Positions 47,750 through 58,164 of a stretch of 64,000 nt of DNA are shown one piece after another. The stretch covers positions 22,382,001 through 22,446,000 of the forward strand of contig OZ024743.1 in assembly GCA_964016885.1 (NCBI GenBank), written 5' to 3'. The notes beneath the pieces are model-generated. The model was given only the letters and a program-made list of their open reading frames with translations, was not told the DNA's origin and searched no databases. Numbering within the stretch: position 1 is the first letter of the stretch; each line of letters opens with the position of its first letter. The position numbers and the translations under genes were made by a program. Source of the stretch: Eledone cirrhosa (Eukaryota).

Positions 47750-48856
47750 CAATGTACACAAGAGATGTAGTGGGATAACAGGTAGACGAATGAAAGGGAA
47801 GAGTTTATATGTAGAAAATTCACAGAAGAAATCGAGAGCAAGAGTTCTAATGATATAAATCTTTTCCAGCCACAGTAAGGGCCTATAAAAGTGGTTGATA
47901 GCTTCCACTATCTAGGTGATTTAATTCGCAGTGGAGGAAGGTGAAATGAGAGCATAATAGCTAGAATAAGGATAGGATAGAAAAAATTTAAAGGGCTACT
48001 CTCATTGTTGGTTACAAAAGGTTTAATAATAATAATAATAATAATGAAAATATTGTGTAGTGCTCAGGTGCACTACAACTCATCAAAAAGTGTATGTATA
48101 GTACATAGGGTACTGTATAATACAAACATCAGGAAAATGAACAGTGCATGAGTCATGATATACACATGTGTGCATGTGTATGGAAGGGGTACATCAGGTG
48201 TAGTTTTGGCGAATTTCGGGAAGCATGAGGGTTTTAAAGGATGCAGTGTCTCGGCAGCTAACAACTGACGCAGGCAGTTTGTTCCATGCTTCAGCAACTT
48301 TAAGCGTGAAAAAATGTTTCCGAAAGTCATGGGAGCTGTGCTGTTTTCTGATTTTGTAGGGATGTCCACGTGTGTTAGACACATGGAGATGAAAAAGGTC
48401 TCAGGCTTGTTGTTGGCGAGACCTGCTGCATGTCAGTGAAACATCAGCTGTGACTGCAAAGGACATGCAGAGACTGGACAGAAATGAAGCAACCATGTTT
48501 CGTTGGATGTGCAATGTAGATGTGAGAGAAAGGCAGAGCTTGGATGAACTGAGGAAAAAGGTGAGTTTAAGAGGAATTCAAGGTGGTGTGCAGGAGAGGA
48601 AATTGCATTGGTATGGGCATATGATGTGCATGGATGATGATCGCTGGGTGAAGATGTGCCAGGAAATCCCAGTTGAAGGAAGCTACAGTAGAGGTAGACC
48701 AAGAAAGACCTGGGAAGATGTGGTGAGAGCTGAACTCAGATCACTGAGACTCATGGAAGAGACTATGAAGGAACATAGCAAATGGAGGGATGCCATGTTG
48801 AGAAGGACCTATCCAACCTATGCAAGTGTGGAAAAGAGGATGTAAAAATGATGATG
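47750..48856 (+). mobile_element. Decayed RTE-clade fragment interrupted by a CR1/L2 insertion
   Basis: VDSFHYLGD...LLVTKG to the left of the insert; ORF 48450..48845 (LHWYGHMM, GRPRKTW) to the right; tgatgatg tail. Confidence 0.85.
48024..48421 (-). mobile_element. 5'-truncated copy of the CR1/L2-type LINE
   Basis: ORF 48194..48382 TRGH...FFTLKVAEAWNKLP; same 3' UTR and tail as the other copies. Confidence 0.95.
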
Positions 48857-51493
48857 TGTATCCCGGGTTCAATTGGAGGTAACCACAGTAAGTAAGGAAC
48901 TGAGCTTCCTTGCAAGAAGATGTCTATCTCCTTTATGCTGATCTCTAGTGAAAAATCTTTGAATGGTAAGGAAATCTTGTTAATCATTTCTCACTGGGTT
49001 AACCGAGAACAACTAGTGCCAAATTTTCAGCAAACAGAAGATTCGGAACTGGATTTCACCAATATAGAATAACATCACCATATTTCTTTGAATAAACACT
49101 GTAGTAAGACAGCAAAATATATTCTAAATAAAGTTGCAGGCTCAACTTTGCTTGACACCAAACCTGATAATAAAACTATCAAATAGTACAGTGGCCTCAG
49201 TATAGTCATAGAAGGAGAAAAAGAGCGTGAGCAGTCCTTCCCCTAGCAGAACAGCTCTGCTAAGTAAAATTTTAAAGATGTTTATGTAATTTTGTTCTCA
49301 ATGCTGTGACAGTATTTTTTCTTGATTGTATCATGCCATAATGCATTGTGATTAAATATTTCCTTTTTCAAAATCCGATATTCAAATTGTGGGTTAAAAT
49401 AAATTTGTAGATAATGCTATCTTATTGTAGTATTTTATTCTGATAACCATGTTTTACACTCAGGATCTCAAGTCCATTCTTTAATGTCATTATTTTTGTC
49501 TCATGAATTTGGTGCATATATTCTCTGAACAAAAGATTTTCATAAGAAATAGTGGGTTAGGCTATGAAATTATTTGTTTATCTCTCAACTAATGATGGCA
49601 GATAAATGGCCAATTCAGCTGGATTGCTTGCTTTGATGTATTTCATTATTGCATGCACTTCAAATGTTCCCTAGCTGTTCTTTGAAAGTTGTAATTAAAA
49701 CAGTAAAAATACATGGAACGACAATCATCACAACCACTCAATATGTGTGTGCATGTGTCTTCATAGATATATATATAAATTTGAATTTTACAATGTCTAA
49801 TATAATTTGTGTGTGTGTTTAAATATGTAAGTATGCATTTTTGTGAACATATACATTTTTCTATAAATTCTTCAATTGTTTCAGTTAAGGCTCAGCATGG
49901 CTCAAGTTAACTCTGTAAATGAGACCATGCTAAGGCACCACCATTAATAGTTTCAATGTCTTTTGTTCAAATAGTCTGGTGACAGTATGTGTTTATGTGT
50001 TATCAAAATTCTCCATCAACAACTTTCTTGTCAGCAACAGTCATCCTTTGATTGTGTCTATATCCCAAATAGGAGAAGGAGTTATGTACACTTGGTTTTC
50101 TCGTGTTGTTTCTAGACCACCATTTAAATACAACATGCCATGACCATTGTCTTGCAAATGAGAAACCTGCACTCTAGTGGTTGATACTTTTATATTTCTG
50201 TATATAAACACTTTAGTTGTTGGTTCATCAAATTTTTCTCTAATGGAAAAAAGCATATGAAAAATATTTCAGTCCTTATATTTTTCTTTAAAATCATTAT
50301 AAATAAGTGACTGAAGATGTTATGCTACCCATAGATTTACTGGTTCTAAATCTATGGACAAACCTATTTCTATATCTTGTATGTTTTCAGTAGGGAGTAC
50401 TGATTTCACCTTGGCAGAGAATGAAAAGGAATTTGTTACATATAAAATTGTTTCTCTATATATCTAAAACTATCTTTGTATCTATATTATTTTTCTCTTT
50501 TTGTCACTTTTCTTCCTTCTTTCTCCCTATTTTCTGCTGCTTTAGAATGAAGACATTTATACAGATAATATAACATAATTATCTAACTGACTCCCTACTG
50601 TTACATTGCTGAAAATGTTCAAAATACAGAAATAGGCTTGTCTTTTGATGTAGAAATAGGAAATATAAAAATTAAAACTATAAACAACATAACATCATGA
50701 GTGAGTTACTTAAAATGATTGCAAAAGAATGATAAGGAACAAAATAATGTTCATATGCTTTCCTTCCTTGAAACATGAATGAGTAAACAACTGAGCTGCT
50801 TATTTCATCATCATCATCATCACTGTTTAATGTCTGCTTTCCCTGCTAGCATGGATTGGATGTGTCTACATAGTAGACCTGCTTCAGTACTGATTTGGTC
50901 TGACATTCTAAACAGGCTGAGGAGTCTGCATGTTGGTTACGTGTCCTCATACATTCCATTGAGGGCACAGTTGTCATATTTTGATACAAACTGAAGGGTC
51001 CTCCTAACAACTTAATATATATATATATATATATTTATTATGAGGGAAATCAAAGAATATATATATATATATATTCTTAACAAAATGTACCCAGCCTACA
51101 CCATAAAATGATCATTTACGTGCTATGATAAAAAGCACCCAGTACACACTGTAAACGTGGTTGGTGTTTGGAAGGTCATCCAGCCATAGAAACCAAGTTA
51201 GAATCAGTTCTAATAATAATAATAATAATGAAATTATTGTGTACAGTGCTCAGGTGCACTACAACTCATCAAAGGTGCATGTATAGTACATAGAATAATG
51301 TACAAATGTCAGGAAAATAAACAGTGTATGAGTCATGATATAATAATAATGAAATATTGTGCACAGTGCCCAGGTGCACCACAACCCATCAAAAAAGTGT
51401 GTGTACAGTACATAGGGCAATGCACAATCATCAGTAAAATGAACAGTGCACGAGTCATGATACACACATGTGTGCATGTGTATGGAAGGGGCA

Positions 51494-54316
51494 CATCAGG
51501 TGTAGTTTTGGCGTATTTCGGGAAGCATGAGTGTCTTAAAGGATGCAGTGTCTCGGCAGCTAACAATTGACGCAGGCAGTTTGTTCCATGCTTCAGCAAC
51601 TCTGAGCGTGAAAAAAATGTCTGCGAAAGTCATGGGAGCTGTGCTGTTTTCTTATCTTGTAGGCATGTCCACGTGTGTTAGACACATGGAGATCAAAGAG
51701 GCGCTCAGGGTTGCAGTTGGCGAGATGGTTAAAAACTTTGTGGGTATTCACCAAGTCCATTGCCAGACGTCGGAGCCTCAATGAATCCATGCCCAGGGAA
51801 GCAAGGCGTTCAGAGTATGGTAGGTGTCTGATGGAGGGTATGCGCTTGGTTGCACGTCTCTGAACAGTTTCCAGGAGGTCAATGTTCTGAGCAAGATAGG
51901 GGTTCCAGACTGATGATGCGAATTCCAAGTGTGGTCGCACCATAGCTGTATACAGTTTTAAATAGATGGCTGGAGAGCGGCTAACAATGGTCTTGCTGAG
52001 TGATGCCAAGACACCCTCGGCCTTCTTGACAATCTTAGAGACATGCTTTGTCCAACGCAAATCGTTGCTGACAGTAATGCCCAGGTCACGTTCACAAGAG
52101 GACTTTTTGATGTCAGTGTTGTGGAGGGAGTATGTGGACGCTGGATTTTTCCTTCCAAAATGCATGGTGGTACACTTGTCCACAGCCAGCTTCAGTTGCC
52201 AGTCTGTGATCCATTGCTGCATTGTGTCCAGGTCTGATTGTAGGAAAGAGTTGTAAATTTCAGGATCAGTCCTTTTGATTTCAAGGTACAGCTTGATGTC
52301 ATCTGCATATTTTAGTACCGTGGCATTCTGTAAGTTGGCATCTATGTCATTAATATATGCCACAAACAAAAGAGGACCAAGAACAGATCCCTGTAGTACA
52401 CCAGATGACATCTCATATGGTGAAGAATGCTGTCCTAGAACCGTGACTACTTCCTTTCGGCTGAGAATGAAGGATTTCAGCCAGTCGAAAAGATCATCCC
52501 TCACACCCATTGCAGAGAGTTTTGCCATAAGTCTTTTGTGTGGCACAGAATTAAAAGCCTTAGCAAAGTCAAGGTAAACAACATCCACCCATGAGCCGCT
52601 ATCAGTGATCCGGGTGATGTCCTCAAGGAACTCGATAAGCTGATCACAGCAGCTGGAGTTAGGGATAAATCCAAACTGTGAGGGCCGGATGAGGCTGTGA
52701 GAGCTCCAGAAGTTCCAAAGTGTTTCTCTGACACAGGATTCCATCAGTTTGGCCATACAGCTAGTAAGACTGACTGGACGATAGTTGACAGGTGACATGC
52801 GATTGCCCTTTTTGAACAGGGGAATGACACTGGCAGTTTTCCACTGCTCCGGAGTAGCACCATTGCTGAGACAGTATTGAAAGAAAAAAGAAAGCTGGCG
52901 CAAAAGGAAATACCCGCCACGTTTGAGAAGCAGGTATGTCACACCATCAAGACCAGGGGAGGCATAGTTGCGCTTATTCTTAAGGTGACGTCGCAACATT
53001 GCAGGTGTAAATTCCATAGTTGTTATGGAATTTGATGTTAGAGATGGTGGAGATGGTACATTCTGGTTTTCAACAGTAAAAATACTTGCATAGCACTCAG
53101 CAATGAGTTCTGCGCATTCCTTGGGATCGTCAGTGATCTGGCTTGTGTGGGGATTGCGAAGAGGACCAACTGGAGAGTGAGGTCTCTGCTTTGAATGAAC
53201 ATATTTCCAGAACACCTTACTGTCAGGATTGGTTGCGATGCACTGTTCAAATTCAAGCACTGCCTTCTTTGTCACTTGCTTGAGATGGTTAGAAGATTTA
53301 TTCCGCTTTTTTCTGTTGGCATCTGATCTATGCAGTTTATATTCCCGTTCAGCGTTCCGACGTTCTTTCCTGGCAAGTCGGACCGCTGAAGTTTCCCAGA
53401 TTGCACTTTTGGGGTGGTTATTTTTCCGCTTCCGTGGCACTGATGCTGCACACGCTATCCATATTGAGTCCAGGATGCTCTGGAGTATAGAGTTCACATC
53501 TCCAGAGTTATACATCTCATGCCAGTTTGGGCGCTGTAGCTCAGTGCAAGTTCCAATCCGCCCTCTTCCAATCAAAGCAAGCAGATTGGAGATGGCTCTG
53601 GTTTTTGTTGCTGCCCTCAAGTGCCAGATTGACAATGATCATAGCATGATCAGAGTCGCCTAGAGGTTCCTCAGTAGTACAACTGATAACCACTTCAGGA
53701 GTAGTGGTGAAGATCAGGTCCAAAGTGTTGTCACCTCTTGTTGGAGAGGTGACTACTTGTGACCAGTTTGAGTCCAGCACTAGTTCAAGGAAATCGTTTG
53801 CACCCTGTGGCCAACGAAAGGTTTCCCAATCGATCTCAGGATGATTGAAGTCACCTGCAATAAACACATAAGTGGCTGTTTTCTTGGCAGCAACTCTGAG
53901 GATATCGCAAAGCTGTGTGTCCTGATGGTAGTTTGGGGGGCGATAAACAACACCAAGCAGAAGTGTTGACATGGTCATACGTATGTCACAGAAAAAAACT
54001 TCTTCCTGTGATTCGTTCAAATCAACGCAAGGAATTACCGAAAAGTTTGAACGAACGTAGACCATCACACCACCACCACGGCGGTTAATGCGGTCCTTGC
54101 GGAAAAGGTTGTACCTAGTAATGGTGAAAACCCCATCACAGAGTAAGGAATGTGCCCATGTTTCCGTGACTGTGATGAAGTCAGGGTCGATGCTTCTGAC
54201 GTAGGATTCGAACAGATGTATCTTGTTGCATAAACTGCGAGCATTTAAGGACAACAATTTGTACCCTGCTCGCAGTTTATGATGGTGTGTAGAGGGTGGC
54301 AGGTTGTTCTGGTTTA
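51494..54316 (-). pseudogene. LINE ORF2: APE endonuclease plus reverse transcriptase, two frameshifts
   Basis: LNARSL, TETW, GDFN, LDL, SDH (53541..54257); NYRPVSL, LDFAKAF, QGSVLGP, YADD (51593..53635). Shifts near 53548 and at an A7 run at 51611-51617 (A6 in the 48.3 kb copy). Confidence 0.92.
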
Positions 54317-55664
54317 GTTTCCCAGAGTTGTAGCAGTTTTTACATTGCCAGTTATTGTGGGTAGATCACACTCAGACCAGCTGGTATCTCTCTTCCACGT
54401 TTCACCAGCCTTGACAAACCTCCAGATCTGCCCATCATCACGCAGACTGAAACTTTCATCTTGTGCTGAGTTCCGATTCAAGGAAGCTGCAGCACGTAGT
54501 TTTGGACGTACATGGGGTGGTAGGCCTGGGCGTGTTCGGAAGGTAATCCGATTTTCACGCCCAGCTTTAGCAGAGGCCAGATGATATGAGGTTGCCTCTG
54601 CGGGGTCCGAGAAAGACAGCCTGATGAGTCTGGGTTTTGGACCAGGTCGACCAAGGCGGAGGGCACCCTTTGGGGGAACACAGCCTAGGTCTTTGGCTGA
54701 GCTGGCAGCAAATGCCTGAAGATCAGCCTTGTCCTCTGGTACCCCAATGGCAATCACATCATGGGTAGCAGATTCCGCAGTCTTTTCAGCAAGAGGTACA
54801 GGGAGATTCTTTAGCAAGGCATTCCGATAAGACCCCTCATTGTGGGGTCCTACCCGAATGCTTGCCTCTATTCCTGCAACTTCCCTTCTCAGAGCAGAAA
54901 TCATTAGTTGCAGTTCCGCAAAATCTGTACTGGTCGGTTGTTGTTGTTGCTGCTGCTGCCGTCGTTGTTGGTGATGATGTTCCTCCACGGGAATGGCAGG
55001 GGAGGACACAGTCGCAGGTTGTTGCTGTTGTTGTTGTTGGTGATGATGATGTTCCTCCACGGGAATGGCAGGGGAGGACACAGTCGCAGGTTGTTGCTGT
55101 TGATGTTGTTGCTGATGATGATGTTCCTCCACGGGAATGGTAGGGGAAGACAGTCACCAGTTGTTGGTGTCGAGATGTACTGGGAGTGGAAGACATGGGT
55201 TGTTGTTGTTTCTGATGTTCTCCCACAGGAATAACAGTAGAAGCCAGTGTCATAGGTTTTTGCCGTTGTTCAGTAACAATGGTAGAGGAAGACACAGTCA
55301 TTGGTTTTTGTTGTTGTTGTTGTTTTTCAATAACATTAATAACATTCGTGGAGGCAGGCACACAGGCCAGACACTGAAAGGACCAGGATTTTAGCTGGAC
55401 CATCTCCCATATTCCATCCATCATAGCATTATGATGTCTCTTTTTTTGGCCTGGGATCCTCCGGAAGCCTGTGGCGCATTGAAGGCAGACAGAGATGCGA
55501 CAGGTTCCACATTCGACCCAGCGATTACGGAACGAGTTTTCGGGTTCCGCACAGATATGGCAGATGTGGTTTTCTGGGCAATGTTCTATCTTGGGACATC
55601 GGCCGGTTTTGTCGCATATTTCATCGATGGATATCACCATGGCAATTTTGTTATTTCTACCCAT
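54314..55664 (-). pseudogene. LINE ORF1 (~450 aa) with N-terminal PHD-like finger, Q/H-rich repeats and coiled coil; one frameshift
   Basis: CHIC...WVECGTC...CLQC...FQCLAC; ORFs 54837..55691 and 54314..55132 join if a TG dinucleotide lost near 55151 is restored (actgtc vs actgtgtc in the neighbouring repeats). Confidence 0.8.
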
Positions 55665-58164
55665 CCGTAGAAAAACACAGAATGTAAACAATATAGGTTT
55701 AGCGCACTTGATTACGATAGAAATAAAATGTCTGTTTTTTTGTGTATTTTGTTTCCGTTTTCCTAAATGTTGTGTGTGTACAGAAGAGTTTGAATTACAT
55801 TACATGTAAACAAATAAATATGCTGCGTAAGTTAAATGAAACGTACTGTAGAAGGCAGTTGTTTATTAACAGCGAAATAAGGTTGTTTTTTTTTTGTTTT
55901 TTTTTTTTTTTGTCCTGATACTGCTTCTTTATAGTAAACTTTCAATAATATTTTTTTTTCAAATTATTAACTTTCAGCTGCTAGTATATATATATAATTA
56001 AAAGGTGTATGTGGGTTAGAAGCGAGGTCAATGTTAAGAAATATTTTACCAATGTAAATTGGTAAAATTGGCCAGTATAGTGTCTCACACGAAATAGTGT
56101 GGTTTCTTTTCACGTGTGTGTATATGCATATGGAATGTATCTGTATATAAATTTGTGTGTATATTGTTGTTTATATGTTTTGTGGAGTACTTACTGCGAT
56201 CCTTAAGGGACGTAGTGATTTGTTTTGTTTTTTTTCCTTTTTTCCCCGTCCATGTCCACACGTGGTTTGTTGGCGAAAATCAAGTCAAATTATATATACT
56301 TCGTTAAAATAATTCTATCTTGAAACTGGTACTAGTTGTCAGGGAACAGTGAAAGTAATTGTGATAATGAATATTGTAATCCATCTGACATGTGTTTAAA
56401 GGGCTGTTTTTGGTGAAAATATTATATTTTGTTCGGTATTTTGTTCTGTATGAGCAAGATACAATCATCTGATCTGGCTTGCCCCACAACAGGACAATTC
56501 AACTAACTCATGCTAGAATGGAAAAATGGACATTAAATGATGATGATACTGATATTTACCTGTCTACAGTAGGACCAATAATGCTGTCAGAACTTTATGT
56601 AGCACAGATATGAATATCCCAAAGAAATAAGGTGAAAAACGTTTTTGTTTTTGTGGAAGAATAGCATCAAATTAGATTTTGTTGAGTATAAGCTGAACAA
56701 TGTAAACAAAGAAGTTGAGGCTGAGTGCTTATTTCGTTCATTGTTTTATGATCGTTTCAAAAGTTTGAATGAATCATGATAATATGGTGTATATGTGTGC
56801 ATGTGTATGAATAGTTGTATCAATGATGGTGCTTTATGTATAAATGTGTGTGTGGGTGGATGGATGGATGTGTCGTTATATGCTTATGCATTTATGTGTA
56901 TGTACACAATGACCATTCCATTACTAGCTTCATTATTTGACCTCATGACTGATGTATTTGAAGAAATTCAAATCTTTCCCTCTCTCTTCAGTCTCTGCTG
57001 TTTTTTTTTTTTCTCTCTTCTGGTGTGTGTGTGTGTGTGCCCACATATATATATGTATGAGTGTGTGTGTGCATGTGTGTGTTATGTGAGAGGCACACTA
57101 AACCTGAACTGCCTTATCTCCCAAAATGTCTAAATCTGGCCCTACCAGTACCTACTTGGACTTTCCAAAAACTACCATGTATCATGATAAACCAGGCCTA
57201 TTGGGCAGTTTTTAACTATGTGGACAGAAATAAAGCCTTTATGCAAACAAATAAAAAAAGGAAGCCTAAATTAATGTAATATACCTTAGCTATCAATTGC
57301 TTTTATTTTTATTTAACAATTTCAGCTCATGCTGTTCAGAGTGTGCAGCATATACACTGACCTAAGTGAGGCATGTCATACCGAAGCTGAAAGATTTAAG
57401 AGTTGCTTCCAAGTATTTTATTGGGTACTTTCTTGATGCAGGCTGTTCCGGTGTTAAATGCAGGACCAAAACAATCTAAAAATTCTTCTTAGTTGGTAAA
57501 GACTTTGTCACATATACCTAAGAAGACATTTAAGTAATATTCCAAACATTGGGTTAATAATGAGAAAGTTAGTTATATTACTAGAGCTCACAAAATTTTG
57601 GATTATTTAAAAAATTATTTGGAATTCATAGACAGTGTTTTCAATAAGAAATATGGTGATGTGAGTTTTAATAAAAGTCATAAATCAACTATGACAATGT
57701 TAAATTAACAGACAGTTAAATTCTAGGGGCTCAATTTAGAAATGAGAAAATGGGTTGAATTGATTTTTTTTATTCATCTCTCTCCCTTGATATATTGGGA
57801 AAGCTGATATTAGAGATTTCAGATGAAGCAATAGAAAATTATTTTAATCAATAAAAGCATATGTATATATTTAAATGTGTTATATCAGTTGTTATTCATG
57901 AGATTATTAATTTACAAATTATTAACCCCATGACAAAATTATTAAATATAAAAAAGATACATCTACATTATAATTTGATTGGCAAAAATGCTAGAGCATT
58001 AGACAAAATGTTTTGCATATTTAGTTACTGCCCTTTATGTTCTGACTGCAAATCCCACCAAGATCAACTTTGACTTTCATCCTTCTGGATAATATAAACT
58101 AATAGATTGATATAATTGACTTCCTCTCCATGTGCCTAGATTAGAAATCATTATATTTTTGTAT

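Follow-up and report, generated by a model that had tools for sequence, protein, structure and literature searches.

A LINE with overlapping reading frames

The 64,000-nucleotide (nt) stretch of the Eledone cirrhosa assembly GCA_964016885.1 analysed here (contig OZ024743.1, positions 22,382,001 to 22,446,000, hereafter the window) carries on its minus strand a copy of a long interspersed nuclear element (LINE) of the type encoding an APE endonuclease and a reverse transcriptase (RT). The copy spans 51211..56437, as delimited by blastn against L031-L033 and by Pfam; it is ~97-98% identical to intact copies, its 5′ end is shorter than that of L032, and all of its features given below lie on the same strand. 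Two open reading frames (ORFs) overlap within it: ORF1 (54314..55664), and ORF2 (51496..54323), which encodes the APE domain (Exo_endo_phos in Pfam) and the RT and is in the -1 frame relative to ORF1. The last codons of ORF1 form the slippery heptamer G_GGA_AAC (54317..54323), in ORF1 phase, and the UAA stop of ORF1 (54314..54316) adjoins it. We consider it likely from these features and from the comparison of copies and families that ORF2 is made by programmed -1 frameshifting at this predicted shift site, giving an ORF1-ORF2 fusion protein. The layout itself, its occurrence in intact copies and the nucleotide-level conservation of slippery heptamers across distant families are demonstrated below.

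An earlier note, made from the letters of this DNA alone, had described an in-phase G_GGA_AAC directly before the ORF1 stop and an ORF2 whose -1 frame runs through the site unbroken and is free of AUG codons up to the APE domain. Both statements proved accurate: read on the minus strand, the heptamer runs from 54323 to 54317 and UAA from 54316 to 54314, and the ORF2 frame is open from 54365, through the heptamer, into the APE domain. Its first in-frame AUG comes only 86 codons past the heptamer, at 54065, inside the endonuclease and beyond the first two APE motifs; an overlapping stop-AUG of the SART1 type is accordingly absent from the junction. The window copy is broken by a 2-nt gap near 55152, which frameshifts ORF1, and by a 5-nt gap near 53548 and a 1-nt insertion near 51617 in ORF2 (blastn gap list).

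The element has the hallmarks of a LINE of the APE-type class that lacks long terminal repeats (non-LTR), with APE and RT in ORF2, a simple-repeat 3′ tail and dispersed, 5′-truncated copies. We place it provisionally in the CR1 group, a putative label based on ORF2 C-terminal motifs together with the ORF1 type.

The heptamer is retained within the source genome

The element's family is young and abundant; a search of the 3.0-Gb source genome (G000) with the junction DNA returned 1,291 candidates, of which 40 were scored. Six copies were fetched whole, and in all six a 957-codon ORF2 frame was open from stop to stop; three of them (L031-L033) also had an unbroken ORF1, and in these the junction was identical. 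The earlier note had named an in-frame AUG or a different frame relation as the outcome that would count against its proposal; the intact copies show neither, lacking an in-frame AUG ahead of the APE domain and having ORF2 in -1.

Heptamer and stop were present in 30/30 of the nearest copies, which, being picked for closeness, show a family trait and not selection. Beyond these, heptamer and stop were retained in 47/50 distinct copies from subfamily B, which has 86% APE identity, and in 21/24 more diverged copies; where they are lost, ordinary decay or 5′ truncation would account for it. In subfamily B the -1 frame opens just three codons upstream of the heptamer, which leaves no room for an AUG. 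The end of a contig from another organism carries the heptamer and stop behind a differing upstream sequence. Searches of the source genome for additional close families yielded mainly subfamilies A and B, and no relatives of the element were found in the viral contigs searched.

Slippery heptamers are conserved across distant families

Relatives were compared as proteins through ORF1 and as DNA through ORF2. Among 1.84 billion representatives, from a library with clustering at 50% identity, 62 ORF1 relatives were found, eight of which lacked the anchoring tail motif and were left out; most of these are fragments, and one (P0140) ends in GN. The tails of the other 54, otherwise unalignable, contained GN in 43 cases, KN in five, EN in five and none of these in one, whereas shuffled tails contained GN in a mean of 7.5 and at most 16 cases over 2,000 shuffles. 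The residue preceding GN could have a G-ending codon in 43/43 relatives, as against 21% of tail residues that could not (P 3.6e-5). The site lies 1-33 residues past the last conserved Trp and 0-18 residues short of the ORF1 end, directly at the stop in just 10/53 relatives. Two of 5,580 ORF1/ORF2 protein pairs tested reconciled in the -1 frame, and there the heptamers are forced to be G_GGA_AAC and A_AAA_AAY. In L097 (59% APE identity), the locus that encodes P0003, ORF1 ends on the same heptamer followed by UAG, behind an unalignable tail of other length.

The scan of metagenomes via ORF2 took the best 80 of 440 relatives among the 600 matches listed. With four further loci, matches in prokaryote genomes that carried nothing informative on the junction, and two own copies this made 86 loci; anchoring succeeded for 78, which formed 50 clusters. 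By the rule used, an ORF1-like run was missing in thirteen clusters; these were left out, including L097, L131, L162 and L174, which carry slippery-type heptamers. In the remaining 37, ORF2 was in the -1 frame in 28, in +1 in seven and in frame in two. An in-phase heptamer occurred in the overlap of 8/28 of the -1 families under a strict rule (1.3 expected) and of 20/28 under a relaxed rule (3.1 expected), while out-of-phase windows held heptamers in 5/28 and 8/28.

In a test independent of the heptamer, the site was placed by the ORF1 protein motif alone, which was possible for 26 of the 50 clusters. Immediately ahead of the site the codon ended in G in 25 of these 26 families, across seven amino acids and including rare codons, the exception being a family with U_UUA_AAC. 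At the site itself Glu was always GAA (17/17; background 0.57) and Asn always AAC (19/19; background 0.35), whereas adjacent Tyr, Phe and Gly codons varied freely. Stops in the -1 frame fell from 64/489 codons ahead of the site to 1/494 past it, compared with 85/494 in the +1 frame. Other lineages carry A_AAA_AAC or U_UUU_UUA, and a tree of the families, in which many deep branches are unresolved, required 14 changes among 10 heptamer labels. A usable in-frame AUG was present in just 4/28 families; taken with the small share of relatives in which the site abuts the stop, this indicates that the signal tracks the heptamer and not a stop-start pair.

A strong stem lies beyond the usual spacer

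The earlier note had also pointed to a perfect 15-bp stem downstream of the heptamer, beyond the canonical spacer of 5-9 nt, and this structure holds up. Its 5′ arm (54267..54281) and 3′ arm (54229..54243, encoding the APE motif N-A-R-S-L-C) form a perfect inverted repeat, identified from sequence and folding, with a 23-nt loop and a spacer of 35 nt from the heptamer. Its folding z was -5.0, with 0/200 shuffles equally stable; its window was the best of 207 along an intact copy (z -6.5), making it the strongest local structure, and the longest perfect inverted repeats among 20 shuffles reached 8-11 bp. The stem was perfect in 29/30 nearest copies, and paired at 14/15 positions in 10/20 diverged A-type copies (an A.C mismatch). 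In subfamily B nine basal pairs persist, including one that changed in compensation from A-U to G-C and one G-U. In L097 the stem is missing at that place and a hairpin lies closer, near 9 nt past the site (z -2.8). The mismatched copies had suggested that the perfect stem might be a recent product of the window's lineage, but contigs of two other organisms share the window's 5′ arm, the 3′ arm being partly listed; another family there has a differing 5′ arm. The long stem is thus real and may be under some selection; it is probably not the trigger of the shift, and as a canonical stimulator it is unsupported, given its 35-nt spacer and patchy conservation.

A pseudoknot between ACCC (54297-54294) and GGGU (54266-54263), raised in the earlier note, was rejected: both strands are present in the window and neither in subfamily B. 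A weak alternative helix is possible in subfamilies A and B (duplex -4.3 and -5.2 kcal/mol); its 5′ strand (54303..54310) starts 6 nt past the heptamer and its partner, 54255-54248, lies in the stem loop. The one Rfam match, to a microRNA (E 0.12), was taken as chance.

Frameshifting and its alternatives

The junction combines what is expected of a -1 shift site: an in-phase heptamer within the overlap, a -1 ORF without AUG, and conservation beyond the needs of the protein. Under the frameshifting that we favour, a fraction of ribosomes would slip back by one nucleotide at G_GGA_AAC, presumably with the Gly and Asn tRNAs slipping in tandem, and yield a fusion carrying endonuclease and RT. The result would be a ratio like that of Gag to Gag-Pol, with much ORF1 protein (ORF1p) and little fusion, and the fusion could trimerise through the ORF1 coiled coil, placing the RT on its own RNA. 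The stimulator is the least certain part; most likely it would be slow decoding of the adjoining stop, aided by weak pairing from 6 nt downstream, and any contribution of the long stem at 35 nt would be no more than indirect, such as through ribosome queuing. The earlier note had proposed either a retrovirus-like ORF1-ORF2 fusion or structure-dependent coupling; the comparison strongly backs the fusion by frameshifting, and the structural part has become weaker with the distant, patchy stem and the lost pseudoknot.

Several observations weigh against frameshifting. No canonical stimulator is apparent, the strong stem being 35 nt away; the junction of subfamily B is outside the eight best-folding of 183 windows, and structure just past the site is not enriched over 34 families (z < -2 in 4/34, by simple folding only). 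Nine of the 37 clusters are not in the -1 relation; three of the nine look like copies with A-run indels, and L107, L151, L163, L164, L165 and L168 seem to have another layout. The relaxed rule behind the count of 20/28 was set only after G_GAA_AAC had been seen in the data, the families with G_GAA_AAC belong mostly to one group and are non-independent, and P values are too small because families are related. The site in six families reads G_GGG_GA(A/C), not a known tandem-slip heptamer. For the 62 ORF1 relatives proteins alone were compared and codons were not seen, and the ORF2 gene calls of both reconciled pairs begin with a Met ~13 codons upstream of the site, where an upstream start is possible. 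The missing AUG alone proves nothing, because L1 makes its ORF2 independently of the AUG and does so with no frameshift (PMC5009743, PMC1965478).

The retained in-frame CUG at 54300..54302, 11 nt past the ORF1 stop and 18 nt ahead of the stem, also weighs on this side, and it is central to an alternative that we regard as rather unlikely: ribosomes would terminate at UAA and initiate again independently of any AUG, for instance at this CUG, with the stem aiding selection of the start, and ORF2 would be a separate protein. Subfamilies A and B both retain the CUG with its A-rich surroundings, the position of the stem is better matched to scanning or initiation than to slippage, and the basal pairs with their compensatory change persist in subfamily B; work by Kozak reportedly found that a hairpin helps weak starts. 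The AUG-independence of L1 ORF2 fits such a restart too (PMC1965478, PMC5009743). However, L097 has no CUG, and its sole AUG lies two codons ahead of the APE motif; AUG, CUG, GUG, ACG or UUG occurs within 30 nt of the ORF1 stop in just 11/28 families, and six families have none in the whole open stretch. Reinitiation also leaves unexplained why codons are forced at a heptamer 19-32 codons ahead of the ORF1 stop in most of the 26 families, why slippery types are swapped for one another, and why the -1 frame opens exactly at the site.

The forced codons bear equally on the view, to our minds very unlikely, that GN is a protein motif of ORF1p with the heptamer as its by-product, ORF2 being produced in some unrelated way, for example through splicing or from an internal promoter. 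The ORF1 alignment ends with a nearly invariant Asn, and (S/Q)GN could be a short linear motif, but Gly is exchanged for Lys, Glu and Leu, which are chemically unlike and yet all give slippery heptamers, synonymous choice is forced wherever DNA was seen, and the -1 frame is cleared of stops from the site on. Contigs of two other organisms run through the junction with no joint in them, although contigs cannot show rare forms. Least credible of all to us is that RNA polymerase II or the RT adds a base at a purine run, so that some RNAs carry the two ORFs in frame. It could draw on three of the 50 distinct subfamily B copies (L046, L047 and L054) in which indels in an A6 run just upstream put ORF1 and ORF2 in frame, with a 1,381-codon open frame in L046 and L054. 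That run is missing in the window's subfamily, however, and the three copies share no private variants and look like independent accidents; for the same reason a replicating sub-lineage with fused ORFs was rejected. The signal is moreover bound to codon phase, as the in-phase and out-of-phase counts show, which a polymerase could not read, and the runs at the site measure just 3-4 bases.

Relation to known systems

Frameshifting at this junction would resemble that of retroviral and LTR-retrotransposon gag-pol and of PEG10, in which a structural gene overlaps a -1-frame enzyme gene that has no AUG, and the overlap holds an X_XXY_YYZ in phase. The window LINE differs from these in being a non-LTR element with an L1-ORF1p-like fold, and in that no strong structure was found at 5-9 nt. 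No protease domain was found in the LINE proteins with Pfam, so the fusion may stay uncut. G_GGA_AAC ranks among the most shift-prone heptamers, and stimulator spacers are usually 5-9 nt, and also 11-15 nt (PMC5009743). The closest precedents among APE-type non-LTR elements are Dictyostelium TRE5-A and TRE3-A, for which a review states that a -1 frameshift is needed for ORF2 (PMC5911963); they differ from the window LINE in host, in ORF1, in the C-terminal zinc finger of ORF2 and in targeting tRNA genes.

SART1 has an overlapping stop-start with a downstream stem. The window LINE shares with it and with mammalian L1 a bicistronic RNA that yields little ORF2. In L1 a spacer separates the two ORFs and ORF2 has an AUG (PMC5009743), whereas here the ORFs overlap in -1, AUG is lacking and the heptamer is conserved. 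L1 is thought to use unusual initiation, and HeT-A needs a frameshift in gag (PMC5009743); L1 tolerates loss of the AUG and Zorro3 does not (PMC1965478); for Paramecium LINEs a +1 frameshift or reinitiation has been suggested (PMC5405496). The available portions of PMC10294476, PMC1925062, PMC4255032, PMC4700185 and PMC13405545 contain nothing on this junction, and a proposal of a slippery site for LINEs of the CR1 group was not found in the full-text literature searched, in which subscription and older primary papers are thinly covered, so that an earlier proposal may exist. The present comparison contributes the swaps of slippery type at one site, the independence of the site from the stop, and the weak case for the stem.

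How LINEs reach a scarce second protein is an old open question, for which the studied cases of L1 and SART1 point to reinitiation. If our reading is true, one of the most widespread animal LINE groups would have a retrovirus-like solution, with a fixed ratio of ORF1 to RT and a fused enzyme, which would give a simple reason for its acting on its own RNA. ORF2 annotation would change, as gene callers begin at internal Met codons, and the relatives would offer a ready-made collection of frameshift signals from eukaryotes, some of which apparently lack the textbook structure.

Variant junctions in related LINEs

In L102, L138, L141, L145, L152 and L173 the heptamer position is occupied by TCG GGG GA(A/C), with the -1 frame opening just ahead and with rare Ser and Gly codons (0.08 and 0.16); this is possibly an undescribed shift site, perhaps acting by single-tRNA slippage. 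Families of the L098 type have Val as GTA in 20/20 cases (background 0.26) 12 nt past the heptamer, within GUGGUAGG, where stop avoidance provides no reason for the choice, and GUGGUAGG is for us a candidate, either as a linear stimulator or as a site of protein binding. In L120, L126 and L167, with ORF2 in -1, the HIV-1 shift site U_UUU_UUA stands in phase shortly before the ORF1 end. The six loci with another layout (L107 and the five listed with it above) place ORF2 either in +1 or in the same frame as the upstream ORF, and most of them lack a usable AUG; judging by these sequences, other routes to ORF2 exist in the group. In an unrelated LINE family of the source genome (L266, L275, L276 and L277), an in-phase A_AAA_AAC lies 171 nt ahead of the endonuclease, which is in -1 to a short upstream frame; the region is A-rich, and the match is possibly chance.

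A broader proposition, which we put forward tentatively and hold to be conceivable but somewhat short of probable, is that -1 frameshifting might be the standard route to the enzyme in a large part of CR1-like LINEs, whatever the ORF1 type, with a retrotransposase that would be a Gag-Pol-like fusion within an ORF1 trimer. Some lineages would then use undescribed signals, namely G_GGG_GA(A/C), or the linear GUGGUAGG in place of a pseudoknot.

The ORF1 protein and the surrounding sequence

In intact copies ORF1 is ~430-460 amino acids long and comprises a PHD-like Cys cluster, Gln-rich repeats, a coiled coil, an RNA-recognition motif (RRM) domain and a domain at the C terminus (CTD). The Cys cluster (55362..55562), in which Cys replaces the usual His, was spotted by eye and recurs in P0090; a Pfam search detects no PHD in ORF1, and the Cys spacing fits PHD only by eye. 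A first model of ORF1 from three sequences was poor (predicted local distance difference test, pLDDT, 45.7), whereas the C-terminal part modelled from 56 sequences reached pLDDT 85.6. Its best match was human L1 ORF1p (2ykp, E 1.9e-4), and its RRM aligned with the L1 RRM 2w7a over 80 residues (Z 9.0, root-mean-square deviation 2.4). The ORF1 profile gave no match below E 0.07 among PDB sequences, and Atlas gave only leads below 0.9, baculovirus FP-like clusters among them. ORF1 type IIC is defined as PHD plus a transposase-22-like coiled coil, RRM and CTD (PMC4120745), and ORF1 here fits it in its L1-ORF1p-like coiled coil, RRM and CTD, with a putative PHD part recognised by eye. The element thereby resembles CR1/L2-lineage LINEs with this ORF1 type (CR1 subgroup 5, L2 subgroup 6), which have a PHD-like cluster before an L1-ORF1p-like RRM-CTD and an ORF2 with APE and RT; the portions of PMC4120745 and PMC13343379 available are silent on the route to ORF2. 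Within ORF1, Gln/His-rich 57-nt repeat units (54935-55330) vary in number between copies, with in-frame 57-nt and 9-nt gaps relative to L032.

The 3′ untranslated region (51211..51495) consists of two imperfect ~120-nt repeats and an (ATT)n tail. A possible target-site duplication of 5 nt flanks the copy (56443-56447 and 51207-51211), its shortness making it uncertain. At G000:C28:124.7-126.35 Mb, and also on C178 and C1185, >20 equal-scoring copies of this LINE lie on the same strand at ~35-40 kb spacing, the element being part of the unit of a large tandem array there. On the plus strand, window positions 48393-48845 hold a fragment resembling the C-terminal part of the ORF2 of another LINE, putatively RTE-like.

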